Source: a virus
Strand: one strand, 5' to 3'
Virus record (IMG/VR): IMGVR_UViG_3300045988_054096
Span: 55,944-119,943 of that record
Length of the DNA stretch: 64,000 nt
The notes below the pieces were generated by a model that saw nothing but the letters and a program-made list of their open reading frames with translations, made no database searches and had not been told where the DNA came from. Position 1 is the stretch's first letter. Every line of letters starts with the position of its first letter. The position numbers were made by a program, and so were the translations under genes. Positions 1,651 through 62,506 of this stretch are shown here, in pieces.

Positions 1651-3897
1651 TTATTCACAACGAGACCAAGAACACTTACTACAATGTTCACAACCTCCTT
1701 CTCTTATAATATCTGAGCCACACTCAGGACACTTACCCTCTACTTCTGCAGGTAAATATTTACTCAAAACTCTACACATCGCTGAGGAGAATGATGTAAT
1801 GTTCTGATTTACTTTTTTAGCAGTCTTGATAATGTACTTGATACTTATTCCATGTCTTAATAGCATAGAACTGTACAAAGTTGCAGCTTTCTCTTCAACA
1901 TTTATATCGGTATCTAGTAGATTATCAATATGTAAGAACTCAGAATTAAGGCTATACTTACCTTTTTCAATCTTAGTGATGGTACCTTTATGTTGAGGCA
2001 ATTTCACCCAATTAGTAAGTCTGAATACAAACACTTCATATGGCTGATTGTCAAGTAATCCTACACAAACTACAAAGTGTTCTCCTTGAGATTTAACTGT
2101 ATAACAATCGCACTCTAAGTCCTTTGGTCTTTTCGGAGCCAAAGTATTCGGAATGTCTATTGGCTTCTCAGTTGTTAGGATGCCTTCTCGATAACATCCA
2201 GATCTGTAGACAGTTACTCCCTTCAGCCCGTTCTTCCAGCCCTCTATATAAATGTTATACACATCATCAATAGTAGCTTCTTTGGGAAGATTGATAGTAG
2301 AACTAATACTCGCATCAGTGTACTTCTGCAATACACCTTGCATCTTAATCCTATCAATAGGAGCTATATCCTTAGACTCTACAAAGTAGTCAGGTAGTGT
2401 AGCTAATCCTTTTGCAGGTACTGCAAAGAAATCCTCTACTATTTTAGCATCCACTTCATAATAGGTATCCTCACCATTAAGAGATTGAGTTCTTCTTGTA
2501 TAATGCAAGGCAAAGTTAGGTTCTACACCAGTACTTACCTGCAACATAGTAGCTATACTACCTGTAGGAGCACAGGTTAATAACTGACTATTATGAAGTC
2601 CATACTTACTTATATCCTCTATCACAGACTGTGGTAAACCTATACTGTTAATAAAGGAAGATTCTGCAAGTAATTTCGGATTACATTCAGGATACATTCC
2701 CTTATCTATCGCCAGAGATAAAGACTCTCCAACAGCTGCCTGTGCTATCGTCTTGTAGACTTCCTGAGTCATTCCTAGAGCAGAAACTGAACCATAGATA
2801 AGTCCTAATTTGATAAGCATATCAGCCAATCCCATAGTTCCTAGACCGATTTGTCTCCAGTTTCTAACAGAGTTCCTCTGTTCTTCTAGAGGATGTAGAG
2901 CAGCTCCTTCGTCCAGCACATCATTCAGGGCCCTCACGGCTTTCTTTACAGCATCAACAAGAGAAGGATAATCAATTGTAGCTTCATTAGTAAAGGGATT
3001 CAATACAAATTCACTAAGATTGATGCTACCTAACAAACAGGAACCTCCTGCTGGTAATGGCTCCTCAGCACACGGATTAACCCCAGCATAGCTAAATCGC
3101 TCATCATTGTTAAGCATATTATATCCAGTGATTCTATCCCAGTAAAGCATACCTGGTTCTGCCCATTCCCAATTCCTTTTGGCTAAGAGCTTTAATAAAT
3201 CTCTTGCCTTAAAAGCCTTGGTAATAGTGCCAGTTTCTTCACTTGTAAATTCAGTTATCCAGTCTTCGTCATGTATAGCAGCCTCCATAAAATCATCAGA
3301 AACTCTGATACTAATATTGGCCTTTTCACACACTCCTTGCTTGGTCTTGAGGTTAATAAACTCCTCAATATCTGGATGTTTACAGCTAATACTAATCATC
3401 AAAGCCCCTCTTCTTCCAGCTTGACCAATGAGTCCTGTTACTTGACTATATAAGTCCATGAAGCTCACAGCACCAGAAGTACTCTTAGCCGCATTATGTA
3501 CAATAGCTCCTTTAGGTCTTAGGTTACTGATGTCAATTCCGCATCCGCCTCCATAGCTATATGTTCTAGCTAGTTTAGCAGCAGTGTTAAATATGGACTC
3601 TATATTGTCCTCTGGAGGAGTAATTACATAACAATTACTGTAAGTAACTCTTCTTCCAGTGACTCCTCTACTAGCCAGAATCCTACCTCCAAAGATAAAT
3701 TTCTTATCTTTTATAAGCTCACGAACATCTTTGTTACCTCCACTTACTCTATCTAACCATTCTTCAAATGTTTCTCCATTCACTTGGTACTTTTTATGCC
3801 AAATGTCAAGAGATAGTTGATTTTCACTAAGCCATTCTTTCTCTGTCATAATTTGTAAATTAGAGTACAAATATAAGCAAAAATATTGAGAAATCAA
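1651..3897 (-). CDS. nrdJ: ribonucleotide reductase, class II (adenosylcobalamin-dependent, NrdJ-like)
   Basis: 748 aa; active-site finger loop GVNPCAEEPLPAGGSCLLGSINL matches RNR NPCGE...C.LGSINL; C-terminal CPECG...CEHCSKC zinc ribbon typical of class II; no in-frame TAG; TAA stop. Confidence 0.75.
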   Translation of the reverse strand: MISQYFCLYLYSNLQIMTEKEWLSENQLSLDIWHKKYQVNGETFEEWLDRVSGGNKDVRELIKDKKFIFGGRILASRGVTGRRVTYSNCYVITPPEDNIESIFNTAAKLARTYSYGGGCGIDISNLRPKGAIVHNAAKSTSGAVSFMDLYSQVTGLIGQAGRRGALMISISCKHPDIEEFINLKTKQGVCEKANISIRVSDDFMEAAIHDEDWITEFTSEETGTITKAFKARDLLKLLAKRNWEWAEPGMLYWDRITGYNMLNNDERFSYAGVNPCAEEPLPAGGSCLLGSINLSEFVLNPFTNEATIDYPSLVDAVKKAVRALNDVLDEGAALHPLEEQRNSVRNWRQIGLGTMGLADMLIKLGLIYGSVSALGMTQEVYKTIAQAAVGESLSLAIDKGMYPECNPKLLAESSFINSIGLPQSVIEDISKYGLHNSQLLTCAPTGSIATMLQVSTGVEPNFALHYTRRTQSLNGEDTYYEVDAKIVEDFFAVPAKGLATLPDYFVESKDIAPIDRIKMQGVLQKYTDASISSTINLPKEATIDDVYNIYIEGWKNGLKGVTVYRSGCYREGILTTEKPIDIPNTLAPKRPKDLECDCYTVKSQGEHFVVCVGLLDNQPYEVFVFRLTNWVKLPQHKGTITKIEKGKYSLNSEFLHIDNLLDTDINVEEKAATLYSSMLLRHGISIKYIIKTAKKVNQNITSFSSAMCRVLSKYLPAEVEGKCPECGSDIIREGGCEHCSKCSWSRCE

Positions 3898-5316: not shown

Positions 5317-6867
5317 TTAGAGATTTTCAAATGTTCCTCTTAATAAACTTCCTCCAACCATAAGGTCATAAGACAATCCATAAGAGTTTCTACTAAAGTT
5401 ATAGTTTGCATAATCTGAAGCTCCAAATAGACTCAATACATTTCTATAATCTAATCTCTTACATGAGTTTAGAGAATTAGAGTGAAGGTCACCTTTAATG
5501 AAATGTACTTTATCTGAATGAATACCTTGATCATGCAGCCATTCATACAACATCACCTTAGATTTATCATCTAAGTTCAGAGGCAATCCTTTCTTCATAT
5601 ACTGATCATCTTTACCATGACAGCATATAAAGGTCTCTCCATCTTGCTCAAATATTCCAAAGAACTCTTCCCAGAACGTAGTAGTAACATTCGGGAATTG
5701 AGCATTTATGAGAGCAAGTAATGCCTTATTACACATATACTCGAAGTTACCTCCATGATTACCACATGGAACAGAGAAAACATTCAGCTTAGAGCAGAAC
5801 TTATTCTCCTTAGCAGCTAGAGTTCCTATAAACCACATCATCAATTCTATGAATTTATTGGCTTGTTCTCTAGCATCCATGTTTTCTGGCATATCATGGT
5901 CGAGCCTAGCAGTCTTTCCAAAGAATCCAGAACAGTCAATATTATCCCCCATAAGGACCACATTAATTGTTCCATAGTCGCTAAGACGTTTAAGTCTCAC
6001 TAAAACTTCAGACAAACGTCTCTTAGCTTCATCAAATCCATAGCCTTTGTTCTCCTTATACATTGCTCCAGAGGTTACAGCTGCCCCAAGATGGAGATCA
6101 GATATATAAAGATTAATGCTTGGATTGGAATTCGGAACCTCCTCTATTATAGTAGGATTTATATTCTCAGGCAAATTAATAACGAACTCAGATGCCATTC
6201 TTAGTTGCCTCTTCAAATCAAGATTTTCCTGAGCATACTTCTTTAACAGCTTCTCATTATTCTTGATTTGATCCTCCTCTGCCTTTCTTAAGAAACTATT
6301 CTCTTTCTCACGAAGTTGAATATCTCTCAATTCATCTTCTGAACATTCCTCAAACATATGAGGAGCAAATGGAGCAGATGCTTTGGTAATATTAAAGGCT
6401 CTAAGAATCCTCTTAAAGTCTACAAGAGACAGATCGACAAAATGTCGAGACACTACTCGTTGAGTAAGGGCATCTCCATAGTATGAATACAACCTGTGGA
6501 TTGTGTTCATTTCCTCTCTAGTCAGTCTGCCACACAACGGAGCTTTATCCCTTCTAAAGATTTGGTACTTATAGTACTTTATCCTTCCATGCTCATCTCG
6601 TATATAAGATGTTTCAGCACGATCATCTGTCTCAACTTCCTCTTCAACAGGAGCTTCCCTATGCCTAGCTACTACCTCATTATAGAGGCTTATCAAGTCT
6701 CGTACATCTTCAGATTCTTCATCATTCTGCCTTTTCAATGCAGAAATAGTGTTTACTATACTGTTATAGCTAAGACCATTATCCAAACAAAATTGGGACA
6801 ATCTTTTTCCACTATCTCTGACTGCCAGCAAGATGTCTGTGTACTTCTTTACTGTAGATTGTTTCAT
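5317..6867 (-). CDS. metallophosphoesterase-domain protein (SbcD/MPP-like) with N-terminal helical region
   Basis: 516 aa; DLHLG...GDNID...GNHG motifs in C-terminal half. Confidence 0.45.
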   Translation of the reverse strand: MKQSTVKKYTDILLAVRDSGKRLSQFCLDNGLSYNSIVNTISALKRQNDEESEDVRDLISLYNEVVARHREAPVEEEVETDDRAETSYIRDEHGRIKYYKYQIFRRDKAPLCGRLTREEMNTIHRLYSYYGDALTQRVVSRHFVDLSLVDFKRILRAFNITKASAPFAPHMFEECSEDELRDIQLREKENSFLRKAEEDQIKNNEKLLKKYAQENLDLKRQLRMASEFVINLPENINPTIIEEVPNSNPSINLYISDLHLGAAVTSGAMYKENKGYGFDEAKRRLSEVLVRLKRLSDYGTINVVLMGDNIDCSGFFGKTARLDHDMPENMDAREQANKFIELMMWFIGTLAAKENKFCSKLNVFSVPCGNHGGNFEYMCNKALLALINAQFPNVTTTFWEEFFGIFEQDGETFICCHGKDDQYMKKGLPLNLDDKSKVMLYEWLHDQGIHSDKVHFIKGDLHSNSLNSCKRLDYRNVLSLFGASDYANYNFSRNSYGLSYDLMVGGSLLRGTFENL

Positions 6868-8156: not shown

Positions 8157-9233
8157 TCAATCAAAACGATAACCTTTACTGTAATAATGAGCAGCTAATC
8201 TTAAGAGGAACTTAAATTCATTCCATCCTTTATTAAAATCTGCTTTAGATAGCTTATAAACTTTGGTGTAATAATCCGGAATAGTCGATACTACAAGGCA
8301 ATTAGATTGCACACTACAGTTCTTCATTCCATAGAACTTATCAGCTACCAAAGTCATCAACCAGCTGTACAAGGAAAGTTCCCTGTGATAATGGAATTTC
8401 TCAAAGTTGTTACCAAACTCTGAGAGTATCTTTCCGATAGTTTTAACATCATTGACAACTACAACATTAGACTCGGTATCAATGGTATAATTATCTAACT
8501 TAGCTTTAATTCTAAAGATAAATGGTTCATATTCGGGAACTTTGACTTGGACATCAAGCAAAATTGCTTGCTCGTTTTCAGAAATTGGATCTACCACAAT
8601 ACCTTTTGGATGTAGCAATTTTTGGATAGATTTATTTCTTTTCAGGGCTTCAACGCATTGTAATACCCTTTCCCTACTCTTAGGATCAAGATATATGGGA
8701 ACCTTGTCATCCACATACTTGCTTCCCCATTCATAGGCTCTTCGTTGAGCATAATAGTCCTCACACTTAATACGGAGAGTTTCCATTTTATCAGCATCCA
8801 TCTTTCCCTTGTAGTAGTCAATCTTATTAGATGCTGCAATTATTTCGTCAGCGGTTACAACACCATTAGCTTCAAACAAGGGATATAATTCGTCAGCCAT
8901 GAAACCAGCTTTAGCTGTAGGTCTATTTACATTATCTACTAAGATAAAGCTTTCAGGTTGTAATACTAATTGATGAACTGCTGATCCAAAGATCAGTGCA
9001 TCACTATACTTATTATGTTTACTCAATCCTTCAAAGAAGGCTTCTGGATCATTGTCTTGATATGGATTTAGCAAGGAGAGTCTAGAATTACTGATATATC
9101 CACTAAACTTTTCACTAAAGTATTCGGCATCATCAATCTTCTGCAACCTTAGTGTATCCATTAGTGGGATAATTTCAATACTATCTAAGTACTTCTCGTC
9201 TATAATCATCCACGAGGTCTTTAAAGTAATCAA
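8157..9233 (-). CDS. putative nuclease (PD-(D/E)XK-like), function uncertain
   Basis: 358 aa; GSAVH and D...E.K-like segments; weak. Confidence 0.25.
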   Translation of the reverse strand: MITLKTSWMIIDEKYLDSIEIIPLMDTLRLQKIDDAEYFSEKFSGYISNSRLSLLNPYQDNDPEAFFEGLSKHNKYSDALIFGSAVHQLVLQPESFILVDNVNRPTAKAGFMADELYPLFEANGVVTADEIIAASNKIDYYKGKMDADKMETLRIKCEDYYAQRRAYEWGSKYVDDKVPIYLDPKSRERVLQCVEALKRNKSIQKLLHPKGIVVDPISENEQAILLDVQVKVPEYEPFIFRIKAKLDNYTIDTESNVVVVNDVKTIGKILSEFGNNFEKFHYHRELSLYSWLMTLVADKFYGMKNCSVQSNCLVVSTIPDYYTKVYKLSKADFNKGWNEFKFLLRLAAHYYSKGYRFD

Positions 9234-21410: not shown

Positions 21411-21649
21411 TTCTCTAACTTCTTACATATAAAGTCAGCAATACTTCCGATTGGTTCTTTCAATATAGAAAGTTCCTCGTCAGTAACTTCAACATCATAC
21501 GTCCTTTCTACATACCCCATAAGGTCTATAGCATCAAGACTGTCTAACCCAGCATCATTAGCTAGACTAGACTTTTCGTCTAGCTCTACTGGATACCCAA
21601 GATCGGAAGTAATGAAGTTGATTATACTAGCTATAACTTCTTCTCTCAT
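21407..21649 (-). CDS. acpP: acyl carrier protein
   Basis: 80 aa; phosphopantetheine attachment motif LGLDSLDAIDL. Confidence 0.75.
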   Translation of the reverse strand: MREEVIASIINFITSDLGYPVELDEKSSLANDAGLDSLDAIDLMGYVERTYDVEVTDEELSILKEPIGSIADFICKKLEK

Positions 21650-22812
21650 GATTCTACACTAATTAACAGAGAGCTATTAGTTCCTCCTAGCCCAAATGAA
21701 TTGCTTAGTATCATTTTAGGTTTGGTTTCTACTAACTCTTTTCTAATATTCAATCCCATTGAAAAGTCAGCAGTATTTATGTTTGGAGGAATAAATCCCT
21801 CTCTAGCTGCAAGAAGAGAATATATCACCTCACTTGCGCCAGCCATCCACATCTCATGCCCAGTTAGTGCTTTAGTAGCACTAATATAGGGAGAGTTTCC
21901 AAACACTACTTTTATTGCATCAGCTTCTATTTTATCCCCTTCCCTAGTACCAGTAGCATGAGCACTTATAAGAGAAACATCTTCCGGATATACATCTCCC
22001 AAAGCTTTCTTCATACAAGATATTTGAGATTCAGTAGTACTAACCACTAACTCTCCAGAGGATGTAGCACCATACCCAATTATTTCTCCGTATATTTTAG
22101 CTCCTCTAGAGAGCGCATAGTCGAGATCTTCTAGAACTAGACAAGCAGCTCCCCCACTAGGAACTAATCCACTTCTCATCTCATCAAAAGGTCTCACTGC
22201 TTCCTCCGGATTTGGACTAACAGAGAAGTTTCCAAGAGCATCAAACGCAAATACTGAATATTCATTGACCTCTTGACATCCTCCACATAGTATTGCTGGT
22301 TCAATTCCTTGCTTTATAAGAGCATATGCAACTCCTATAGCATGACCTCCAGAGGCACAAGCTCCTCCAACAGAGAATGACGTTCCTCTCAACTTAAAAA
22401 GGTTGGTAATAACTGCTGTAGGATTGGAATTTAGAGTCTTAATGACATGAGTTGGTCCAAGTTTTGATGTTTTGGTGTGCTTTCTCCACATATCAATGGA
22501 TTCAGCCATAGCTCTAGAACTACTATCATTTCCAATAATAACACCACAATCTGTAAGACCATCTGAATCAGTAAGTGCTTCTGATGCTGCCACGTAAGCA
22601 TATTTACTTTCATCTGACATGAATCTTTGAAGTGGTCTCGGAATGAAAGGCTCCTGTAACTTACCAGTGAGAGTAGATCGAAATCCTATATCAGTCCTAG
22701 GTGTATCAGCGACAAGTCCACACTTTCCACTACGAAGTGATTTCAGAACTTCCTCCTTACCAACACCAAGACAGGAATATATTCCTATCCCAGTAATGAC
22801 AACTCTCTTCAT
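21646..22812 (-). CDS. fabF: beta-ketoacyl-ACP synthase (KAS I/II, FabF/FabB-like)
   Basis: 388 aa; active-site GGACASG Cys, HATGT His, C-terminal NSFGLGGTNSSLLI; start overlaps ACP stop. Confidence 0.8.
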   Translation of the reverse strand: MKRVVITGIGIYSCLGVGKEEVLKSLRSGKCGLVADTPRTDIGFRSTLTGKLQEPFIPRPLQRFMSDESKYAYVAASEALTDSDGLTDCGVIIGNDSSSRAMAESIDMWRKHTKTSKLGPTHVIKTLNSNPTAVITNLFKLRGTSFSVGGACASGGHAIGVAYALIKQGIEPAILCGGCQEVNEYSVFAFDALGNFSVSPNPEEAVRPFDEMRSGLVPSGGAACLVLEDLDYALSRGAKIYGEIIGYGATSSGELVVSTTESQISCMKKALGDVYPEDVSLISAHATGTREGDKIEADAIKVVFGNSPYISATKALTGHEMWMAGASEVIYSLLAAREGFIPPNINTADFSMGLNIRKELVETKPKMILSNSFGLGGTNSSLLISVES

Positions 22813-31039: not shown

Positions 31040-32956
31040 TTACTTCACTTCTTCAAACGTTTCAGGCTTCTCCTCTGACTCTGGCTTTGTCTCGATAGCC
31101 TTCTTGCCAAACATATCCTTGAAGGTCTCCTTCAAAGGAATGCTACGGAGCAGATCCAATGCAGGATTCAAGTTCTCGGCAGTCTTAGCCATGAAGTTAC
31201 CTGCGGTATTCTCGTTACCATACACAGTAACCTCACCAAGATGAACGTGTTCAAACATCTGAGCAGATGCTTCGGCAATACCCTTAAGCTGATCAACAGT
31301 CTTATACTGTACAATCATCTGCGGAGTCATACCACACTCAATCATCTTCTCAACTGCCTTAGCAGGAGCTAACTCAATTGCAGTAATCTTATCAGCTTCA
31401 GCCATAAGAGATGCTCTCTTACCTTCTGCCTCAGCTAACAGTTTCTTCTTGGTACCTTCAGCCTCTGCCTCCATGATTTGCTGAGTAGCTTGAGCTTTCG
31501 CTTCGGCTTCCTTAGTAATCTTAGCTGCTTCCGCTTCTGCTTCCAAGATGGCCTTCTGCTTGATTGCCTCTGCCTCAATTGTAACTTGTTCCTTCTTCTT
31601 CTGAGCAGGAACAATTACTTCGGCGTGCAATTTTGCTTCAGTTGCCTTAGCTGCAACCTCATTAACTTCAACTTGCTTTTCCTCACGAGTCTTAGCAACT
31701 TCCATTTCTGCATTGACCTTAGATACACCTGCTACACGCTGTGCTTCTGCCTCAGCCTTAGCAGCTTCTCCCTTAGCCTTAGATACTTCAATGGTTGCTG
31801 TCTGTTCAGCTACGCCAGCTTGCTTGTCAGCCTCAGCCGCACGCTGTCTCTTCAGAGATTCATACTCTGCAACCTTAGCTTCCTGCTCATTGATAGCCTT
31901 CTGAGTTTCTGCTTCCTGCTCTTGCTCGGCTTTAGCCATACGAATTTGCTTCTGAGCCTCTGCCTCTGCTTGAGCTGAAGCTGCTTCTGCTTCAGATTTA
32001 GCTACAGATGCTACTGCTTCTGCCTTACGAGCTGCTGTAGCTGCTTCTGCTTCAGCCTGTGCCTTAGCTACATTAGCTGCCTTCTCAGCCTGCTGATTTG
32101 CTACACCAGATTCCTTAACCTTGTCAGCTTCTGCCAACTTGATTTCCTTCTCCTGGTTAATTTCAGCTACACGTACCTCTTGCTGTTGCTTAGTTTCAGC
32201 TACCTGAGTGGCTCTTTCCTTCTCTGCATTTGCTACAGCAATTTGACGCTCCTTCTCAGTATCTGCGATCTGGATGTCTCCTTTCTTCTTCTCTTCAGCA
32301 ATGTCAGCAAGTGCCTGAGCTTCTGCCTTAGTAGCAGCTTTCTTACCAAGATTTCTGATGTAGTTTGCATCATCAGTAATATCAGCATTGTTGATATTGA
32401 TGATACTGAAACCAACCTTGTTCAACTCAGTTTCAATATTCTCTTTAGCTTTGCCCAAGAACTTAACACGGTCAGCATTGATTTCTTCAATAGTCATTGT
32501 AGCCATCAGACTTCTTACCTCACCAATAAGAATATCCTTGATTTGGTCAGAAATTTCTTGTGGACTTGACGTTAAGAATCTACTTGCTGCATTCTGCATA
32601 AGAGTGTCAGTAGTTCCAATACCAGTCGTTAAAGTCACAGGAATAGTAACCTTAATCATCTGACTAGAAACTCCTGCTACAGATGCCTGAATTTGAATAG
32701 GTTTAAGAGACATCTTCCTCCAATCCTGGATCACAGGGAATACAAATGTACCTCCACCATGAATAATCTTGGAAGGAAGAATCACAGTTTCACTCTTCCC
32801 AGTAGTGGGATTGGTTACTGACTTCTTGCCAGCTTTACCAAACACTACTAAGATTTCATCACTTGCGCAACGACGATAGCGCGACATCAGACTAATAAGG
32901 GTCAAGATCACGAGAACTACTATAATTCCCGCGATAATTAAACTTGAAGTAAGCAT
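31040..32956 (-). CDS. flotillin-like protein (SPFH/band-7 domain with long Ala/Glu/Lys-rich coiled coil)
   Basis: 638 aa; N-terminal TM, SPFH domain, extended AEAEA/KAEAEA coiled-coil repeats (source of spurious plus-strand shadow ORFs). Confidence 0.55.
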   Translation of the reverse strand: MLTSSLIIAGIIVVLVILTLISLMSRYRRCASDEILVVFGKAGKKSVTNPTTGKSETVILPSKIIHGGGTFVFPVIQDWRKMSLKPIQIQASVAGVSSQMIKVTIPVTLTTGIGTTDTLMQNAASRFLTSSPQEISDQIKDILIGEVRSLMATMTIEEINADRVKFLGKAKENIETELNKVGFSIININNADITDDANYIRNLGKKAATKAEAQALADIAEEKKKGDIQIADTEKERQIAVANAEKERATQVAETKQQQEVRVAEINQEKEIKLAEADKVKESGVANQQAEKAANVAKAQAEAEAATAARKAEAVASVAKSEAEAASAQAEAEAQKQIRMAKAEQEQEAETQKAINEQEAKVAEYESLKRQRAAEADKQAGVAEQTATIEVSKAKGEAAKAEAEAQRVAGVSKVNAEMEVAKTREEKQVEVNEVAAKATEAKLHAEVIVPAQKKKEQVTIEAEAIKQKAILEAEAEAAKITKEAEAKAQATQQIMEAEAEGTKKKLLAEAEGKRASLMAEADKITAIELAPAKAVEKMIECGMTPQMIVQYKTVDQLKGIAEASAQMFEHVHLGEVTVYGNENTAGNFMAKTAENLNPALDLLRSIPLKETFKDMFGKKAIETKPESEEKPETFEEVK

Positions 32957-34652: not shown

Positions 34653-35549
34653 TTACTTTCGACGTGTAGGTATTCTCCATTTAGCTCTCCTCTCAACGTC
34701 ATTAGGATGAGTGAGATCGCCAAGGAAGGGTCTTCCCACAAGATCCTTGTACATCTGACCAAAGTCACGATATGGTCTCAACTTTGAGCAATAATCCTTT
34801 CCATTAGCTTTGTATTCAGAACTTCTAAAGGTTAATGGTGGGACTAGTTGAGAAATGTCCTTTTCCAATAACCTGCAAAGCGCTTGAGCTCTGATAATTG
34901 CATTGGGATCCAATGGAAACCCTCCAAGGTGGATATGTAGAGAACACTCCTTGTTAAAAGCAGTATACTCTTTTAAACTCTTCAATTCTTGTTTTAGAAG
35001 AGACAATCCATCATTACCATTAAGGACAACCGTAGAGTACTCTAATCCGGAGATTGATCCATCTCGCAAAGGAATTAGTCCGTCCCTGAAACAAATATCC
35101 TCTGGTATGTATCCCATAGAAGTTTCAAATTCTAACCCAAATGTATACTTCAGGTACTTAGACAGAGTGTATTCAGTATCCTTATCAAGCACCCTCTGTT
35201 TTCCATCGAAAAGGCAAAAGCTTTCAACAGCTTCATATCTTTTATCAAAGGAATACGGAAACCCTCCTTGTCCTTTTACATTTGTCTCATAAACAAGAGC
35301 TTCTTCTGGAAAATCAATAGTAGATATGTATATGCCTTTACTCTGACTATACACTAAGTGATCTTTCAAGAGCTCTTTATCTCCCCTAAAGACTTCCGTT
35401 CCACTAGAAGTTTCAATCATAACATCTACCACAGTCTCTCGTCTACTAGAATAACCCAATACGACCAGCCCGGGAAGATGTTTCACTACAACACGTTCAC
35501 ATTCTGAAAGTGGTAGAAATTGTTTAGTTATTTCATCAAAGACTTGCAT
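34653..35549 (-). CDS. amidoligase (glutamine-synthetase-like COOH-NH2 ligase, Pfam Amidoligase_2-like)
   Basis: 298 aa; FGLEFE...RDGSISGLEY...CSLHIHLGG signature. Confidence 0.55.
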   Translation of the reverse strand: MQVFDEITKQFLPLSECERVVVKHLPGLVVLGYSSRRETVVDVMIETSSGTEVFRGDKELLKDHLVYSQSKGIYISTIDFPEEALVYETNVKGQGGFPYSFDKRYEAVESFCLFDGKQRVLDKDTEYTLSKYLKYTFGLEFETSMGYIPEDICFRDGLIPLRDGSISGLEYSTVVLNGNDGLSLLKQELKSLKEYTAFNKECSLHIHLGGFPLDPNAIIRAQALCRLLEKDISQLVPPLTFRSSEYKANGKDYCSKLRPYRDFGQMYKDLVGRPFLGDLTHPNDVERRAKWRIPTRRK

Positions 35550-36871
35550 TCTTCTCGTATGGTTTTGAAATTAAGTTCTAGTTTGTCCTGAAACTTAGAC
35601 TCCAATGGTTCAGTATCTCTACGATAACTTGTTGATTGTCTCATTCCAGAACAAAATTGAGTGGTAGTTACAGATGTTAGCTGTTGAAGTGTACCTGTAA
35701 ATAGAATAGATCCAGTAGGAGAAATGGTCTTATACCATAGATCTCCTCGACAGAAAACTCCATCAACACTAAGGTACCTAATCACATTCTCAAATTTCCT
35801 GCTAAACTTGCTTTCAGACAATCTAGTTTCTTTCCTAAGTCTCGTTAAGAACTTAAAGCAGTTACTATTCTTCATAGCAACTCCATTAAAGAACCAGATG
35901 TCTATTCCTCTTTTTTGTTTAGATTCAACACGACCAAATCTATTGACACACAGCTTGCCATGGATACGTTTCCCTTTATAGGAATAGGTATTATCTAACA
36001 AATTGCAGCTAAGATAATTGTCATAAACAAAAGTGTCATCAGAATAATCATAGTCATCCCACTTTCCGAGATAGTCCCTGCTGTATGGAAAGGCATTGTA
36101 TGTTGGAACTACTGCTACTTCTTTAGTTTGGATACATTTCTCTCTACTATACTCCTTAATAGTTACTAGAGCAGATCCACTAAACTCTAGAAGCTCATTG
36201 CTCCGAACTGAATACGTTGTACAATCTTTCCTCAATGCAAGCAGATAGATTCCAATAGAAGAGAATACTAACTCCCTTTTGGCTTTGTCTATGCAGAAAT
36301 ACAATGGACGCTCTACCTCCGCTTCCTTGGAATAGGTATGCTTTTTAGAAGCTCCCTTAAACAGAAGTACTCTTGGAGAAATTCCTCGATAATCAACAAT
36401 AGCGAACGCTGACCCTCCATTATATTCATCGAGTACATCATAACCAGCGTAATAAAAGATTCTAGCCATGACCTGAGAATCAGTTAATCCAGTAATGTCA
36501 ATATCAGGAATATACTTCTCAGCAAGTTCCTTGTAGTTGTAGATAGTTCCATTGTGGATTACTACAAACTTTACAACCCCACCTTCGGTTAAGACAACTG
36601 GTTGAGCTGTCTCCTTAGATATTACCCCAACAGAGGCTTTTCTACAGTGCAAGAGAGCTATTCTAGCTGTCTTAACATTGTTCAAAAAGTCACTATCCGG
36701 AAAATAGTTAGCGAACAATTTAGTCTTGTCAACACCATAATCACATTTACCGTCTATAAAGACACCACAAGAGTCTCCACCTCGGGCATCATTAGCAATG
36801 CCCAAGGTACAAAACGTAGAATAATCAAACTCCCTCGGAGTTTGATTAATAATTCCAGCAATTCCACACAT
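35528..36871 (-). CDS. class II (Ntn) glutamine amidotransferase
   Basis: 447 aa beginning MCGIAGI (N-terminal nucleophile Cys2); overlaps neighbours. Confidence 0.65.
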   Translation of the reverse strand: MCGIAGIINQTPREFDYSTFCTLGIANDARGGDSCGVFIDGKCDYGVDKTKLFANYFPDSDFLNNVKTARIALLHCRKASVGVISKETAQPVVLTEGGVVKFVVIHNGTIYNYKELAEKYIPDIDITGLTDSQVMARIFYYAGYDVLDEYNGGSAFAIVDYRGISPRVLLFKGASKKHTYSKEAEVERPLYFCIDKAKRELVFSSIGIYLLALRKDCTTYSVRSNELLEFSGSALVTIKEYSREKCIQTKEVAVVPTYNAFPYSRDYLGKWDDYDYSDDTFVYDNYLSCNLLDNTYSYKGKRIHGKLCVNRFGRVESKQKRGIDIWFFNGVAMKNSNCFKFLTRLRKETRLSESKFSRKFENVIRYLSVDGVFCRGDLWYKTISPTGSILFTGTLQQLTSVTTTQFCSGMRQSTSYRRDTEPLESKFQDKLELNFKTIREECKSLMK

Positions 36872-36874
36872 AGG

Positions 36875-37660
36875 TTATATGATGTTATACTCAGAGATAA
36901 CTCTCTTAGCAAGTTCTAAATCACTATTGTTTATTACACTACAAGCAATCGCAGGACTTATGAGAGTACTTCCTTTAGAGCAGTGGTATATTGCTTTTGA
37001 AAGCTGGTCCCATACAAAGTTCAAAGTTTCTACATCCTTCATCATAGCACCGCTCAATACCCTATACTCTACACCATATGGAGTGAGTCTAAAACATCCT
37101 GCCTTACCATACAAAGAACGTCTTCTCTTATCCCTATCCCTCACAACAGATGGAATGCCAAGATACATATCTAAGTACTTAACCAATGCTACAGATGTGT
37201 CAATGTTGTTATTAGCATACCCAATGTGGAAGCCACAGCTCCTGAGGTTAGTTTTGTTTCCTTCTGGTTTAGGATTAGCCTCTTCTGTATAAGCATTGTA
37301 GTCTACATCACATCCAAAGAGTTTAGCCTGAGGACTTCTCAATTGACTAGCGTCTACCGTTTTCGATGCTGCACAGAGTATTCCGAGATCGGGATTAATG
37401 TTCTTAACAAATTTATCAATATATGCCTTCATATACTCAATGTTGTTTATGAAGGATATCCTATCATTAACAGGAGGTATATTAAACTCCGCTACGATGT
37501 TGTCGGTTTCCAACCCAAATCCACTCGGCATATCTGCTGCTACATAAGGATTTCCCTTCTCTCCAGGGATCAATCCAATAGAAGACACAACCTTCTTTGT
37601 TTTCTCATTTATGATAAACAATTCAGGATCTGCTCCTATAGTTATATTATTTATTCTCAT
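36875..37660 (-). CDS. second amidoligase-like / COOH-NH2 ligase-like protein
   Basis: 261 aa; GADPELF...SCGFHIGY...GVEYRVL resemble ligase motifs; weak. Confidence 0.3.
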   Translation of the reverse strand: MRINNITIGADPELFIINEKTKKVVSSIGLIPGEKGNPYVAADMPSGFGLETDNIVAEFNIPPVNDRISFINNIEYMKAYIDKFVKNINPDLGILCAASKTVDASQLRSPQAKLFGCDVDYNAYTEEANPKPEGNKTNLRSCGFHIGYANNNIDTSVALVKYLDMYLGIPSVVRDRDKRRRSLYGKAGCFRLTPYGVEYRVLSGAMMKDVETLNFVWDQLSKAIYHCSKGSTLISPAIACSVINNSDLELAKRVISEYNII

Positions 37661-38367
37661 CTACTAAACGTTTTACAAGATCACTAATCATTTTTGCGAC
37701 AGGAGAGTCCGGTATCATCTCTGGATGTCCTTGTACTGCAAGGCACTTAGGGAAACCCTCTTTGTGATATAGAACAATTTCAGGTTCTCCGTTCTTTATA
37801 ATGGTATCCTGGTCTATTTTTTCTCCTACATACTCATGAGATCTTCTCTGTTGTAAACAACACATCATAATCTACCCTATTCAGATTATAGGGATACTGC
37901 ATTTGATGATGTGTTGATGTAATCTGATATAGTGTATCGCCATCACTAATCTCGTGCGTATATCCTATGGCATGATTCCAACAATGCTGCACAAGAATAC
38001 CACCGTTCATAACACACAAGAATTGAGAACCTCGGCATATTCCCAAACACAATTGTGTAGGTTTGACTGACTCGAAGATTTTCTTTTCAGCAAGGTCACG
38101 CTTCTTATTACTGTGAGTATATCGATCCCTCTCACATCCATACTCTTAGGCATGAATGGAAGATTCGAAGTGTAAATTACAAATTTTACCATTCTTAGGA
38201 GTATAGTTGCTATCCATTGGTTCTGTTAAATAGAACAGATCGACTTCTTTCCAAGTAGCCATCACTAGCTTTTCACCAGGAGGTAATTCTATAGTTAGAG
38301 TACCTCCAAACTGTCTTGCTCTCTGATTTTCAGTACATGAAAAAAAGCGTTGGAAGCAATCCCGCAA
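37647..38367 (-). pseudogene. class I glutamine amidotransferase-like / peptidase C26 (gamma-glutamyl hydrolase-like), disrupted by in-frame TAA (38148-38150) and a frameshift near 37860
   Basis: fragments in track (73, 72, 73 aa) join as ...ESSIHA*EYGCERDRYTHSNKKRDLAEKKIFESVKPTQLCLGICRGSQFLCVMNGGILVQH...HHQ... then shifted ...GEPEIVLYHKEGFPKCLAVQGHPE; conserved GICRG(S/M)Q Cys and HPE His present. Confidence 0.45.
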
Positions 38368-38404
38368 CCAACGCTACAATTAACAATCTTTTCCTCATAA
38401 ATAT

Positions 38405-38478
38405 TAAAAGTTTGCACGGGCTGAAGGACTTGAACCCCCGACATTCGGTTTTGGAGACCGACGTTCTAACCAACTGAA
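38405..38478 (-). tRNA. tRNA-Trp (anticodon CCA)
   Basis: GCGGGCTTAGTTCAGTTGGTTAGAAC...loop CTCCAAA...GGGGGTTCAAGTCCTTCAGCCCGT. Confidence 0.65.
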
Positions 38479-38683
38479 CTAAGCCCGCATGAAGCTGGGG
38501 TTTACTTTTACTTCTAACCCCAGCTGTAAAAGAAGGTCGCTACGCCTGACCCACACCCGACGTAGCCTAGGCAATAAAGATACGCTTAATACAAGGGCTA
38601 AACTTACATGTTATTAATAGACTCTAATAACAAAGCCTCGGTGTTACGTTGTACTCACTTGTGCACCAGCAGTACTTCCTATG

Positions 38684-38790
38684 CGGAGGTGGCAGGACTC
38701 GAACCCGCACGCCGTGTTACCGACTACTGGTGGTTTTCCTACTACTCATATGAGTAGCTCGACTATCTCTTTACCATATCATTACTGACT
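38684..38790 (-). other. tRNA-like 3' module (T-arm GCGGGTTCGAGTCCTGC + acceptor-like CACCTCCGCA) preceded by a 16-nt perfect hairpin; no matching 5' acceptor found
   Basis: seen on minus strand; could be a fourth permuted Y-RNA-like element or a tRNA remnant. Confidence 0.2.
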
Positions 38791-38882
38791 TAGGTAGCTG
38801 GTGTATAGTCTGTACACATTTAGGAATTAATTCCACTTAGCTCGGGATTATTATCATTTATAGGGCTGATACCTTCCCCGAA

Positions 38883-39327
38883 TTAGCCAGCTTCTACTTC
38901 AGAAGTTTCCTCCTGAGCACTCGTACCCCAATCTAATGTTACTATATATTTATCCCACTTGTCTGTTAACGTAAGAGTATTCTTAACATTAATAATACTT
39001 GTAGGAATTTCATACATAGTTCCTTCTACCGTCACTATAAATAGTACATCACAACTAGTATTGTCAAATGGTCTAGTTTTAGAAGTTCCAGAAGAACCTC
39101 CACAATTCTTCAATAGGACCTCATAGTTTCCAGATTCTTTTCTAAACTAAGTTGTTTTTACAGATACTCGTAGTAACTTTCCATCTTTATCCACTACTAA
39201 ATCGTATTTTTGGGTATCGTTAAGTGGCAGTAATACAGGAATACAATTAGCAGTATAATATGCTATTGCTCTTCCTAGTCCCACATTACCCTAATGTGAT
39301 TTGTAATTAGATGTCCAAGGATTCATA
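38883..39327 (-). CDS. hypothetical protein, TAG-recoded (2 in-frame TAG)
   Basis: ATG at 39325-39327; MNPWTSNYKSH*GNVGLGRAIAYYTANCIPVLLPLNDTQKYDLVVDKDGKLLRVSVKTT*FRKESGNYEVLLKNCGGSSG... continuous into track ORF 38883..39113; TAA stop. Confidence 0.5.
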
Positions 39328-40451: not shown

Positions 40452-40646
40452 TTATTCCTTTATGTAAAGCCCACAATGGCATACATCTTTCTCTCTATAA
40501 TCAGAACATGGACAATGTTTATCATAAGATTCATTATGACATGGACATTCCCCATCACAGATATTTATTCTTTTGATAATAGCTTCTGCAATCTTCTGAT
40601 TTACTTTCCATCCTTCCTTACAATTTGCTTTTACCTCCTCTAATGT
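40452..40646 (-). CDS. small Cys-rich (metal-binding-like) protein; track ORF start at 40700 overlaps tmRNA 3' end so internal Met (MTLEEV...) is the likely start
   Basis: CDGECPCH...CPCSD...CHCG pattern. Confidence 0.3.
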   Translation of the reverse strand, partial: TLEEVKANCKEGWKVNQKIAEAIIKRINICDGECPCHNESYDKHCPCSDYREKDVCHCGLYIKE

Positions 40647-40665
40647 CATAACATACAAGTTAAAG

Positions 40666-41152
40666 TGGAGATGGAGGGAATCGAACCCTCGTCCAAACAA
40701 TCCTTAATAATAAGATAACGTGTGTCTCTATTTTATTTATCAGCTGTTGAGGTTCAGCTTATTTAGTTATATGACACTAACAAACTAGGGCTGACCAGAA
40801 TGTCAACGCTCCACCACCTACTTTTTAACGCTAAAGCAGGAAAACGAGTGTTTGTGGTGAGTCAACCACGCAGGCACACATCCCTTCTGTTTAAAGACAA
40901 TAATAGGAGATTCAGCTCTACTAACCTGTGGCTTTCGAGTTAAGCACAGTGGCTTATATCCTTCTGCTGTACACCTCTTCCGTTTCTAGGTCTCTCCCTG
41001 TAACCCGACTCAACACATCAACAGCTGAGCCAGCTGCTTAGGCAGCCATTCTTACTTCATTGTAGTTTGCATTTATTGTTTTCCTTCGTTTAAAGAGATC
41101 GCGCTCTACACGTCTTATTACCTCGTAATCGTTGTCAATACCAAGCATCCCC
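40666..41152 (-). ncRNA. ssrA: tmRNA (ssrA), ~487 nt, tag peptide ANYNEVRMAA
   Basis: 5' GGGGATGCTTGGTATTGACAACG pairs with 3' CATCTCC-A; 3' end TTTGGACGAGGGTTCGATTCCCTCCATCTCCA closely matches tmRNA consensus GGACG.GGGTTC.A.TCCC.CCA.CTCCA; internal frame GCA AAC TAC AAT GAA GTA AGA ATG GCT GCC TAA (41070 to 41038) followed by hairpin GCAGCTGGCTCAGCTG. Confidence 0.6.
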
Positions 41153-41158
41153 AATAAT

Positions 41159-41277
41159 CAGAAATCTATTCAACTTGTCTTTTGCTCTGCCAACTGAGCT
41201 ACCTCCTGTTTATAATGTCTAGTCAGGAGGATGAGACTCGAACTCATGACTCAAAGATCCCTTCAATAGCTTTGCTG
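41159..41277 (-). ncRNA. Y-RNA-like (YrlA-like) RNA with permuted tRNA-like domain
   Basis: minus strand 5'-CAGCAAAGCTATT GAAGGGA TCTTT GAGTC ATGAG TTCGAGT CTCAT CCTCCTG A [CTAGACATTATAAA] CAGGAGG TA GCTC AGTTGGCA GAGC A AAAGA CAAGTTG AATAGATTTCTG-3': T-arm + 3' acceptor precede 5' acceptor + D-arm; AAAGA/TCTTT and CAGCAAAGCTATT/AATAGATTTCTG form a long terminal stem with 7x7 internal loop where an anticodon arm would be. Confidence 0.45.
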
Positions 41278-41298
41278 TTAGATTTCTTATTAGTGAAG

Positions 41299-41372
41299 TT
41301 GGGAGAACGGGATTCGAACCCGCAACCTCTACATCCCAAATGTAGTAGACTAGCCTATTGTCCTATCTCCCA
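41299..41372 (-). tRNA. tRNA-Pro (anticodon UGG)
   Basis: TGGGAGATAGGACAATAGGCTAGTCTACTACA TTTGGGA TGTAGAGGTTGCGGGTTCGAATCCCGTTCTCCCA. Confidence 0.6.
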
Positions 41373-43626: not shown

Positions 43627-43718
43627 AATTAAGTGAGGAAGAAAAGATTCGAACTTTCAAAACAATCATACCTAGAATTTGATCTGCTTTACCATTTTGC
43701 ATACTTCCTCATTAAGAG

Positions 43719-44907: not shown

Positions 44908-46650
44908 TTATTTCTTTTTACTTGTTTTACGTTTCGGTTTATTTACTACGACTTGCAATCTGTTCAACAAGTCCTGATCCATTGCAACCATGAAGAGTTC
45001 TTCTGCATTCTTTGGAGTACGTTTCATAGTACCAGTTCCCACGATGAATGCTACGGCTGATGGATCATAGCCAGACATATAGAAGAAGTTTGGAGCATCT
45101 GCAAAGTCTTCAAACTTAACTGCGTTTCCACTACCATAATAGTAATTAGGAATATCCCACATAATTAATTTGAAGTTCTTCACATACTCTTCGCTGAATC
45201 CAGCTTCCTTTAAGCGTCTGATAGCAGTTTGGAAGTTCGTACTGTCATTCCCACTTCCATATCTAGCAGGATTCAACTCCCCATCAGACACAAGAAGCAA
45301 TCCAGTTGGAAAGTCTTCATCCTTAACTCCTCTCTGTTTAAGATTGATAAACAAATCTATAACAGATTGGAAGTTAGTTCCACCATAGGCTTCACATCTA
45401 TCGTTGATATACTTATCAACTGGTGTGTCACCTTTCCACTGATGTAACTTACATTTGTCTGCAAACTCTGCAAATGAGTTGGTAAACGGACCAGTCAAGA
45501 ACTCAGAGAAATACAACGCCATAGATTTGCCTATATCATAAGCTGATACATTACATCCTCTAGCCTTAGAAGTCATAGAAGAGGAAGTATCTCTTACAAC
45601 AAGGAGTCTAGAATTAGTGTTAACTCCTTCCTTACCAGTCTTTACAAGCTGTGCAAACTGTGCATTGATTGTGTTCTCCTTATAGTCCTCAATGTGGTAA
45701 CAATTATAGCCACTACCAAGAGGAGTGAACAATTCAAATACAAAGCCTGTATACTTCGCAACTGGTTTAGACTGTATCCACTTAGAATACTTCTCAGTAA
45801 GATTGTGATTCTTCAGGAACTCAGAACCAACGAGAATAGCCAATGCTCTACCAGCAATATGATCGAAGTTAATCTTATCATACAACTGTTGAGAAATCAG
45901 CTGTTGCCATTGGTGAGCTTTTCCCTCAGATTTCATCTTACGATAAGCCTTATAAGCAGACTCTTTCTCCAAATCTGGAGAGAACTTACGAGCTATCCAT
46001 CTACCAATTAAGGTATCAGCCTGAGACTCCACAGTCTTACAGTTCTTGTTAGTACGGATAGCAGGCATATACTTTCTTACCAAGTGAGTAGTCTCTGGAT
46101 TTGTGAATCCAGCAGCTATTACAAGGAAGAAGAAATTCCAATCAAGCTTTCTGCCTTCCCACCCATGATACTGTAAGTCAAGGGATAACATCTGGAAGAC
46201 ATCTTTCCAAGAACCAGCGGCAACGAAGTATGCAAAGTTTGCTTTGAACGTCTTCGGTTGGTTGATAGCCAACCACAACATTCTCATAATGCCTTCGTTC
46301 TTCAAACCCTGTCCTCTCTGTACTTCCAACTCTTCGATAGAACCATCATCCTTTACTACCTTTGACTTACGAGTAATCAATCTGATATACACTGCAAGTT
46401 TCAGACACAACTTCGGATCAAGGCTCCAGAGCAACTCCATGTCCTTTGCTACTTCCTTATAAGAGCGAGGCTCTTTAAAGTATGATATGGCAGCGAAGTT
46501 ATCTACAAAGTCATTGCCAGAAGTGTTGTACTTCTTAGCTCCATTTCCAGATTGGACTACAGAAGTTTCCTTCATCCCTTCTTTCAGAAATTGATTTTCA
46601 GTTCCCTTGTTGGTATCCATAAGGGAACTAAGTTTCTTTTCAAATACCAT
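44908..46650 (-). CDS. rsr: Ro60/Rsr ortholog (TROVE-like helical N-terminal region + C-terminal von Willebrand A domain)
   Basis: 580 aa; vWA MIDAS DTSSSM, GGTNF, LLLVSDGE, and C-terminal MSGYDPSAVAFIVG closely parallels Ro60 DVSASM...GGTDCS...MCGFDTGALDVI; no in-frame TAG. Confidence 0.5.
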   Translation of the reverse strand: MVFEKKLSSLMDTNKGTENQFLKEGMKETSVVQSGNGAKKYNTSGNDFVDNFAAISYFKEPRSYKEVAKDMELLWSLDPKLCLKLAVYIRLITRKSKVVKDDGSIEELEVQRGQGLKNEGIMRMLWLAINQPKTFKANFAYFVAAGSWKDVFQMLSLDLQYHGWEGRKLDWNFFFLVIAAGFTNPETTHLVRKYMPAIRTNKNCKTVESQADTLIGRWIARKFSPDLEKESAYKAYRKMKSEGKAHQWQQLISQQLYDKINFDHIAGRALAILVGSEFLKNHNLTEKYSKWIQSKPVAKYTGFVFELFTPLGSGYNCYHIEDYKENTINAQFAQLVKTGKEGVNTNSRLLVVRDTSSSMTSKARGCNVSAYDIGKSMALYFSEFLTGPFTNSFAEFADKCKLHQWKGDTPVDKYINDRCEAYGGTNFQSVIDLFINLKQRGVKDEDFPTGLLLVSDGELNPARYGSGNDSTNFQTAIRRLKEAGFSEEYVKNFKLIMWDIPNYYYGSGNAVKFEDFADAPNFFYMSGYDPSAVAFIVGTGTMKRTPKNAEELFMVAMDQDLLNRLQVVVNKPKRKTSKKK

Positions 46651-55865: not shown

Positions 55866-56251
55866 AACTCGGCAGTGTTCAAAAGGTTGTACAGTGTGTT
55901 CTTCAAACTCTCAACGATTACCTCGTCGTTAAGCTGCCGACCTTGGAACTTGTCCAAAATGGCATTACGAATGCCCTTTCTCTTTGCCATTTCCTTGTCA
56001 TATTCAGCCTTTCTCTTTGCCATTTCCTTGTCATATTCAGCCTTTCGCGCATCATACAGAACTTTCTCTTTCTTCCTGTCCTCCTTCTGAAGATTGATGT
56101 ATGTTTTCTCTGGCTCTACAGGAGTGCCTGGAAGAACAACATCACAAAGTCCATAGTTCTTATTGGCTTGAACTTGTACTTTGTAGGGAGAAAAGCCATT
56201 CTTGTTGTTTGTAACTTTAAGATTCAAAACGATAGATTTTGCTCCTATCAT
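55862..56251 (-). CDS. hypothetical protein with internal duplicated peptide KEMAKRKAEYDKEMAKRK
   Basis: 129 aa ORF spanning the 33-bp tandem repeat. Confidence 0.3.
   Translation of the reverse strand: MIGAKSIVLNLKVTNNKNGFSPYKVQVQANKNYGLCDVVLPGTPVEPEKTYINLQKEDRKKEKVLYDARKAEYDKEMAKRKAEYDKEMAKRKGIRNAILDKFQGRQLNDEVIVESLKNTLYNLLNTAEL
55978..56043. repeat. perfect 33-bp tandem duplication (TTCTCTTTGCCATTTCCTTGTCATATTCAGCCT x2)
   Basis: two identical adjacent copies 55978-56010 and 56011-56043 inside a coding region. Confidence 0.8.
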
Positions 56252-62400: not shown

Positions 62401-62470
62401 GTCCTCCCCCAAGGATTCGAACCCTGACCAAGTGGGTTAGAGCCACCTGTGCTACCATTACACCAGAGGA
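62401..62470 (-). tRNA. amber suppressor tRNA (anticodon CUA), Gln-like body
   Basis: TCCTCTGGTGTAATGGTAGCACAGGTGG CTCTAAC CCACTTGGTCAGGGTTCGAATCCTTGGGGGAGGA-C; perfect anticodon stem, loop C-U-CUA-A-C; D-arm GGTGTAATGGTAGCAC shared with tRNA-Gln(UUG) at 51134-51205. Confidence 0.65.
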
Positions 62471-62506
62471 GAATAAGGTTGCAGGAATTTCACCTGCAAA
62501 GTATTA

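Follow-up and report, generated by a model that had tools for sequence, protein, structure and literature searches.

We analysed a 64,000-nt stretch of viral DNA (positions 55,944 to 119,943 of the IMG/VR record IMGVR_UViG_3300045988_054096; hereafter the window) and found that it carries a transfer-messenger RNA (tmRNA, ssrA) gene within an array of tRNA genes. The gene occupies 487 nt at 40666..41152 on the minus strand, exactly the position given by an initial annotation made from the letters alone, which had left the strand unmentioned. Both tools proposed there for checking the call returned the gene: ARAGORN at 40665-41152, and the Rfam tmRNA model RF00023 at 40663-41152, with a score of 97.2 bits (gathering score, 47) and an E-value of 1e-36. 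The latter match covers the full model (positions 1-374) and is far above chance level, and the gene is further supported by the 98 distinct homologues described below. We number the RNA such that position p corresponds to window coordinate 41153 - p, i.e., G1 is at 41152 and the discriminator A487 at 40666. The 3' tRNA-like end, UUUGGACGAGGGUUCGAUUCCCUCCAUCUCCA, agrees with the Rfam consensus at nearly every base of the alignment, as had been noted, and the remark that 487 nt is long for a tmRNA is borne out by the 374-position model. We conclude that the phage genome carries a genuine tmRNA gene, full-length and in one piece. A second Rfam match, to the permuted tmRNA model RF04321 (41038-41358, minus strand, 48.4 bits against a cut-off of 47), is an artefact composed of a tRNA-Pro and the standard tmRNA 5' half: its 'acceptor piece' is the T-arm of the tRNA-Pro, which is itself called by ARAGORN and by RF00005 (64.8 bits), and the match then skips 140 nt and ends in the tmRNA 5' half. 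The same artefact recurs with 58.6 bits in a related locus, L002 (homologous loci carry the prefix L), where a tRNA likewise lies upstream of a standard tmRNA; it is a trap for automatic annotation. In a promoter and terminator scan, the terminator-like matches turned out to be the tmRNA's own hairpins, and Bacteroides promoters are outside the coverage of that scan.

Relatives of the gene were gathered through the neighbouring AAA-ATPase gene, through two DNA patterns searched against IMG/VR and through one pattern searched against metagenome assemblies. This yielded 146 loci with a tmRNA 5' half, with 127 full-length copies, 98 of them distinct, plus about 20 cut-off copies. For covariation analysis we aligned 26 sequences and counted pairs for the structure drawn on the window RNA. 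In this structure 80.2% of the cells are paired, compared with 40-50% when the 3' partners are slid by 1-3 columns, and compensatory changes occur in 36 pairs, which was matched by none of 500 shuffles. The acceptor stem P1, formed by GGGGAUG (41146..41152, minus strand) and CAUCUCC (40667-40673) and followed by the discriminator A, is the one proposed in the initial annotation and includes a G3:U wobble; 95.6% of its cells are paired, three pairs have compensatory changes, and its variants include GGGCCUA/UAGGUCC, GGGCCUG/CAGGUCC and GGGCCAU/AUGGUCC. The G3:U pair is found in 24 of the 26 sequences, the alignment being shifted by one column in the remaining two, and G3:U70 together with the discriminator A is the predicted alanine identity of the molecule. 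The T-arm GAGGG-UUCGAUU-CCCUC (40674..40690, minus strand; RNA 463-479) is 100% paired with three compensatory pairs. The long helix P2, which connects the tRNA-like with the mRNA-like part and whose 5' strand lies at 41108..41134 on the minus strand (RNA 19-45) and pairs with RNA 430-459 (window 40694-40723), consists of three segments that are 89%, 99.6% and 100% paired, with nine compensatory pairs. The P5 hairpin GGCUGC-CUAA-GCAGCU (41032..41047, minus strand; RNA 106-121) is 100% paired with one compensatory change from U:A to A:U, and the hairpin directly after it (41007..41031, minus strand; RNA 122-126 with 142-146) is 99.2% paired with two compensatory pairs.

The tag reading frame (41038-41070, minus strand), located by the Rfam alignment and the homologues, starts at the resume codon GCA (41068-41070), comprises ten codons and ends at UAA (41038-41040). 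It reads GCA AAC UAC AAU GAA GUA AGA AUG GCU GCC UAA and thus encodes ANYNEVRMAA. The resume codon is preceded by AAUAAAU, with an A at position -4, and AAUAAAU together with the following GCA AAC falls on the consensus resume region in the Rfam alignment. The frame is kept in 98/98 distinct homologues, where the tag length varies by whole codons (9-11, possibly up to 13); their tags include ANNSVRLAA, AEIAPVRMAA, ATYSEVRMAA, AERSD[YV]RMAA, GNTEVRMAA and GETEGYLRMAA. The ending is RMAA in all 98 variants but one, which has RLAA, and the AGA AUG codons show no variation, not even a synonymous one, their alignment columns being invariant; hence the constraint could be on the RNA instead of the peptide. 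ARAGORN places the tag elsewhere, as VQQKDISHCA at 40940..40972 (minus strand), within a variable hairpin with no counterpart in the relatives: in the closest relative, L002, an in-frame UAG (GUA CAG UAG) interrupts it, and the region is swapped for unrelated sequence in L016 and L001. The tag proposed in the initial annotation, ANYNEVRMAA, is therefore the right one on three grounds, namely, the placement of the resume codon by Rfam, the conservation of the frame and the variation of the tag length by whole codons with UAA constantly in a hairpin loop. The stable hairpin that the annotation saw at the end of the tag is also present; however, the stop codon UAA lies inside its loop and not before it, and such a P5-type loop holds the tag stop in every relative.

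The annotation had also called for a comparison of the tag with host SsrA tags, which we made. The native Bacteroides tag is GETNYALAA (bioRxiv 10.1101/2025.03.18.644028); it shares the final Ala-Ala with ANYNEVRMAA, whereas the two residues before Ala-Ala differ, giving ALAA in the host and RMAA in the phage. Some of the relatives' tags begin with GETEG.. or GNTE.., like the Bacteroides tag, which suggests that the gene was captured from a Bacteroidales host and that a change at positions -4 and -3 then became fixed. As far as can be read from these peptides, the phage tag appears to descend from a Bacteroidales-type tag.

Between P2 and the resume codon, at the position of the first pseudoknot (PK1) of other tmRNAs, the RNA forms a hairpin AGAG-CGCGAU-CUCU (41094..41107, minus strand; RNA 46-59), whose AGAG/CUCU stem is invariant in the main group and lengthened to AGAGUU/AACUCU in L025 and L027. 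Downstream of the tag, covariation supports a pseudoknot like PK2 (40905..41006, minus strand). Its stem 1 pairs RNA 148-151 with 161-164 (GGUU/GACC), and its stem 2 pairs RNA 155-160 with 243-248 (GGGAGA/UCUCCU), the partner lying about 90 nt downstream; within the long third loop there are two hairpins, a variable one (RNA 181-209) and a small one (RNA 227-230 with 236-239). Of the 14 variants listed, 13 have a stem 2 of 5-6 bp; in the fourteenth, L016, the top-scoring duplex is another 5-bp match, and GGAGA/UCUCC can be found there as well. In L046 the stem is fully compensated (GGAAGG/CCUUCC). The next module (40817..40897, minus strand) is common only to some relatives and was delineated by a minimum free energy fold and inspection. 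It has four helices (RNA 256-259/267-270, 274-277/302-305, 284-288/295-299 and 313-320/329-336), for which comparison with L002, L043, L053 and L041 gives GUGGU/ACCAC versus GAGAU/AUCUC and CCUGCUUU/AAAGUAGG versus CUCCA/UGGAG; the support comes from inspection, since the automatic alignment is out of register here (helices 14-17). It is followed by three 3' helices (40742..40807, minus strand; RNA 346-351/358-363, 373-376/387-390 and 394-398/407-411) with partial comparative support (helices 18-20), including GCUG/CAGC versus GCUAG/CUAGC. The middle one (RNA 373-376/387-390) encloses an insert of 40-110 nt in relatives, which the window copy does not have. A covariation scan over all column pairs recovered P2, P5 and the T-arm and was noisy in the variable region, and helices 12, 14 and 16-19 score low because MAFFT misaligns the modules. 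Between lineages, the helices of the 3' region are exchanged, extended or lost as modules.

The full-length homologues are 487-598 nt long, the window copy being the shortest because it lacks the insert in the middle 3' helix. The contigs that carry them are largely 165-192 kb and mostly within 90-340 kb, many of them labelled as human gut metagenome, and the flanking tRNAs are all on the strand of the tmRNA in 41/41 loci examined. ARAGORN finds the tmRNA in one of these 41 loci, namely, the window, and the L025-type tmRNA scores 26.9 bits, below the Rfam cut-off. Through the ATPase neighbour we also found tmRNAs at the same genomic position in a more distant clade, where they measure 331 nt (L003, L004 and L006), 463 nt (L005) or 263 nt (L010); the tag is ARVINMTPAYQAAA in the two longer size classes, and the 263-nt mini-tmRNA (L010 12238-12500) is without most of the post-tag region. 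In copies of the L026 type (L026 7390-7955) the 3' strand of the acceptor is replaced (..CCCGUUGGCGUUA), so that the acceptor stem cannot form, and these copies may be dead or interrupted genes. Two loci contain a group I intron in the tmRNA T-loop, directly after GGUU, according to their Rfam scores: L032 (7740-7977, 94.4 bits, the 3' exon resuming near 8620) and L007 (13436-13687, 87.3 bits). A group I intron in the T-loop of a tmRNA has also been reported for Clostridium botulinum; the window gene is uninterrupted. Other RNA motifs seen in relatives are abiF RNA matches (50 bits against a cut-off of 37) in L004-L007 and L010 (at about 5336-6336), a RAGATH-34 match of 86.9 bits in L025 (7097-7194) and, beside the tmRNA of L091, a sub-threshold twister-P1-like match (3253-3315).

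Searches of the phage GenBank collection matched only MT837398, an unannotated fragment, and a Chryseobacterium phage tmRNA at its conserved 3' end. No chromosomal bacterial ssrA with the PK2 motif was found in 32 million contigs (185,579 species); the 21-base motif has two matches there, both in contigs of metagenome-assembled genomes (MAGs) that carry the tmRNA 5' half, and we take both to be phage DNA binned into MAGs.

As for the phage itself, among named records the primase of the window has its nearest counterparts in crAss-like phages (35% identity), and OLOE01000004, which has been published as a crAss-like phage of the Zeta group (zeta_1) with a predicted Bacteroides host, carries a 551-nt tmRNA of the same family (72.7 bits). 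The Zeta group has genomes of 145-192 kb, many tRNAs including suppressors, many group I introns and crAss-type replication genes (PMC7886860). The window fits this description, the capsid and terminase genes lying outside its sequence: it has a rich replication module and 26 tRNAs by ARAGORN plus two by Rfam only. Two of the tRNAs have the anticodon CUA and are thus amber suppressors, labelled 'Pyl' by ARAGORN (43633-43710 and 62401-62472, minus strand). We saw no recoding of TAG in the long open reading frames (ORFs) of the window, and TAG ends 5/61 of them; any TAG recoding would have to affect late genes beyond the window. A group I intron is located at 38742-38945 (minus strand; Rfam 61.1 bits against a cut-off of 50), and near it (37647-39284) are a small endonuclease-like ORF and four short overlapping ORFs, apparently fragments of a glutamine-amidotransferase-like gene. 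Unusual accessory genes of the replication region (35528-37660, 21646-22812 and 31040-32956, minus strand) comprise a glutamine amidotransferase and a phiEco32-like COOH-NH2 ligase side by side, a beta-ketoacyl synthase and a 638-aa SPFH/Band-7 protein. No tmRNA is mentioned in two papers on Zeta phages (PMC7886860 and, from 2025, PMC12386605), both of which used tRNAscan-SE only.

The minus-strand order around the gene is a protein with DUF2828 and DUF7788, a DUF7873 protein, several tRNAs and a small ORF, an AAA ATPase, tRNA-Ile, tRNA-Pro, a YrlA-like RNA, the tmRNA and a 65-aa Cys-rich ORF; the tRNAs between the DUF7873 gene and the ATPase include odd ones, one with anticodon CUA and a tRNA-Ser with anticodon ACU. 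The tRNA-Pro(UGG), at 41298..41372 on the minus strand, lies upstream in the array. The YrlA-like RNA (41159..41289, minus strand) scores 33.8 bits with RF02553, short of the gathering score of 69 (with 1.6 kb searched, E = 4e-5), and folds into a 9-bp terminal stem, AGAAAUCUA/UAGAUUUCU, with a permuted tRNA-like core. With its end at 41159/41160 it lies 7 nt upstream of the tmRNA, so the Y-RNA-like element and its spacing were correctly described in the initial annotation, with an architecture of the YrlA type on folding. However, a general linkage between tmRNA and Y RNA can be ruled out. The two are close in 8/146 loci (gaps of 7-21 nt, and one of 120 nt), all in the window's subclade, the element is 10 kb off in two more, and in the other loci it is distant or was not detected; since the adjacency is subclade-specific, we take the two RNAs for neighbours within the array rather than for a functional unit. 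The DUF2828 (TROVE-like) and DUF7788 protein is encoded 3.6 kb upstream (44908-46650, minus strand; DUF2828 28.5 bits against a cut-off of 29), and 349 phage records, many from tRNA-rich phages, contain a DUF2828 protein. In the terminal stem and permuted tRNA-like core of its RNA and in its TROVE-like protein, the locus resembles YrlA / Ro60 (Rsr) modules, from which it differs in the RNA score below the Rfam cut-off and in the tmRNA adjacency within one subclade, and the YrlA-like RNA and the DUF2828 protein could be a phage Ro/Y-RNA-type module. On the other side of the tmRNA, the Cys-rich ORF (40452..40649, minus strand; ATG at 40649, stop at 40452) was said to have its stop about 5 nt from the tmRNA, which is wrong, as the ORF has its start there, 16 nt past the 3' end of the tmRNA. 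The ORF has no Pfam match, and its pattern CPC-x12-CPC-x10-CHC has a spacing that presumably recalls the catalytic subunit of ferredoxin-thioredoxin reductase.

All elements of trans-translation are present in the RNA, that is, the alanine-identity acceptor, the T-arm, P2, GCA with an A at -4, the tag, the stop codon in the P5 loop and at least one post-tag pseudoknot. We thus consider it likely that this is a functional one-piece tmRNA (ssrA) gene of a large Zeta-group crAss-like phage of Bacteroides. The tmRNA would be co-transcribed with the tRNAs and released by RNase P together with enzymes that process the 3' end. The genome reads ...CUCCA followed by CUU and does not encode CCA, which therefore must be added after transcription; a CCA-adding enzyme would supply it, and such an enzyme has been reported in a related Zeta phage (PMC12386605), whereas none was seen among the 40 window ORFs scanned. 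The host alanyl-tRNA synthetase would charge the molecule with alanine via G3:U70, and the tmRNA would bind host SmpB and enter ribosomes stalled on broken or stop-less mRNAs. The ribosome would then switch to the tag frame at GCA, add ANYNEVRMAA and be released at UAA, and the Ala-Ala at the end of the tag would still mark the rescued protein for proteolysis. The benefit for the phage is probably that ribosomes are kept free in infection; the need for rescue would rise with truncated mRNAs, with damaged tRNA or mRNA and with read-through by suppressor tRNAs.

Several observations weigh against this interpretation. A second stem of PK1 was found neither by eye nor by the covariation scan, the pairing between the loop and downstream sequence being 2 bp at most, and its positions are flagged as non-canonical in the Rfam alignment. 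The helices of the remaining 180 nt, in the 250-430 region of the RNA, have partial comparative support. Moreover, since the two residues before Ala-Ala differ from those of the host tag, recognition by the host protease is not assured. Finally, no SmpB (PF01668) was found among the 40 window ORFs scanned against Pfam, and a tblastn search of limited reach, with an E. coli SmpB query, gave no match in 748 kb of partial genomes; the use of host SmpB is assumed for this reason. The initial annotation had taken an inability to form PK1-PK4 around the tag frame as evidence against a tmRNA; of these, one post-tag pseudoknot is well supported, and PK1 is only a hairpin. However, PK1 of E. coli tmRNA can be replaced by a hairpin, so we regard the hairpin as a variation and not as a disqualifier. 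The reduced PK1 and the partial support for the 3' helices do not undermine the tmRNA call.

The difference between the tag endings raises the question of whether the phage tmRNA replaces or out-competes that of the host and changes the fate of the tagged proteins through RMAA and perhaps the extra domains, where the altered fate could be slower degradation by ClpXP, escape from an adaptor or delivery to another protease. The family would then be a phage-specific, expanded tmRNA lineage whose tag and added RNA domains redirect trans-translation in infection; for instance, host SmpB might be captured while the protease or adaptor that sees the rescued proteins changes. This possibility is in line with the occurrence of RMAA or RLAA in all 98 variants as opposed to GETNYALAA in Bacteroides, with the GETEG.. 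and GNTE.. starts that suggest a Bacteroidales-type origin and a fixed change at -4 and -3, and with RNAs that are 30-60% longer than the 374-position Rfam model. However, the final Ala-Ala, which matters most for ClpX in the E. coli tag, is retained, Met for Leu is a conservative replacement, and the synonymous invariance of AGA AUG means that the constraint could be at the RNA level. On balance, both the take-over and the redirection by such a lineage seem unlikely to us. We give a similarly low, slightly smaller chance to the view that the tmRNA mainly rescues ribosomes driven past UAG by the phage's own amber-suppressor tRNAs. Suppressor tRNAs raise tmRNA tagging in E. coli, two CUA-anticodon tRNAs lie in the same array, and L025 and L027 carry a CUA tRNA near the tmRNA. 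Recoding of TAG or TGA is also frequent in Zeta phages (PMC7886860). Nevertheless, OLOE01000004 has the tmRNA yet is listed with the standard code and no suppressor tRNA, which weakens the link; in addition, a suppressor tRNA is found in only 3/41 loci, with short flanks, and the long ORFs of the window are without TAG recoding.

Alternatively, the RNA could be a decoy that titrates host SmpB or alanyl-tRNA synthetase and blocks host trans-translation without tagging anything itself, as has been suggested for the molecule of mycobacteriophage DS6A, which consists of the tRNA-like domain only (PMC4131195), and the failure to find a phage SmpB in the 40 window ORFs and by tblastn in 748 kb would agree with this. 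However, a tRNA-like domain would suffice for such an action, whereas here the resume context, the tag, the stop in the P5 loop and the pseudoknot are all kept with compensatory changes, making a decoy very improbable. The gene might, lastly, be a piece of host ssrA, either as a remnant of an integration site, as a decaying passenger or as an assembly chimera, given that integration into ssrA is common among temperate phages, which then carry the 3' end of that gene. But the gene has its full length, including a 5' half of its own; it recurs in 146 loci, mostly independent large phage contigs, and lies in tRNA arrays wherever examined; it evolves by compensatory change; and the 21-base motif occurs in only two MAG contigs of 32 million. 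We consider a host-derived fragment extremely improbable.

The window gene shares with bacterial tmRNAs (RF00023) and with Bacteroides ssrA the tRNA-like domain with G3:U70, the T-arm, P2, a resume codon with a short tag that closes with Ala-Ala, a stop codon placed in the P5 loop and a post-tag pseudoknot. It differs from them in its location in a tRNA array of a phage, in its size, which reaches up to 598 nt in relatives, in having only a hairpin for PK1, in its interchangeable post-tag modules, in the CCA that is not encoded and in the RMAA instead of ALAA ending. Phage tmRNAs are known from mycobacteriophages (Bxz1, Cali, Catera and others) and Bacillus phage G (PMC4131195) and from huge phages (PMC7162821). 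Like the present one, they are found in large tRNA-rich genomes and are presumed to support translation in infection, whereas the lineage here is that of the Zeta crAss-like phages of Bacteroides; also, huge phages sometimes encode SmpB in addition. As a kind, a phage tmRNA is thus already known, and the present one is of moderate interest. What is new is the lineage, the size range and modular build, the PK1 hairpin, the invariant RMAA ending and the near-total failure of ARAGORN. Since ARAGORN, which is used in phage annotation (e.g. in Pharokka), detected only 1/41 loci, and one subgroup is below the Rfam cut-off as well, published counts of phage tmRNAs are probably too low. The family, with its members of 263-598 nt, its PK1 hairpin, modular inserts and T-loop introns, is a natural experiment on which parts of a tmRNA are dispensable. 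The contrast between RMAA and the host's ALAA provides a hypothesis that is open to direct testing in Bacteroides and, if trans-translation were indeed redirected, ribosome rescue would count among the functions that the most abundant group of human gut phages takes over. In any case, a conserved ribosome-rescue RNA widens the picture of the translation equipment that Zeta phages carry of their own.

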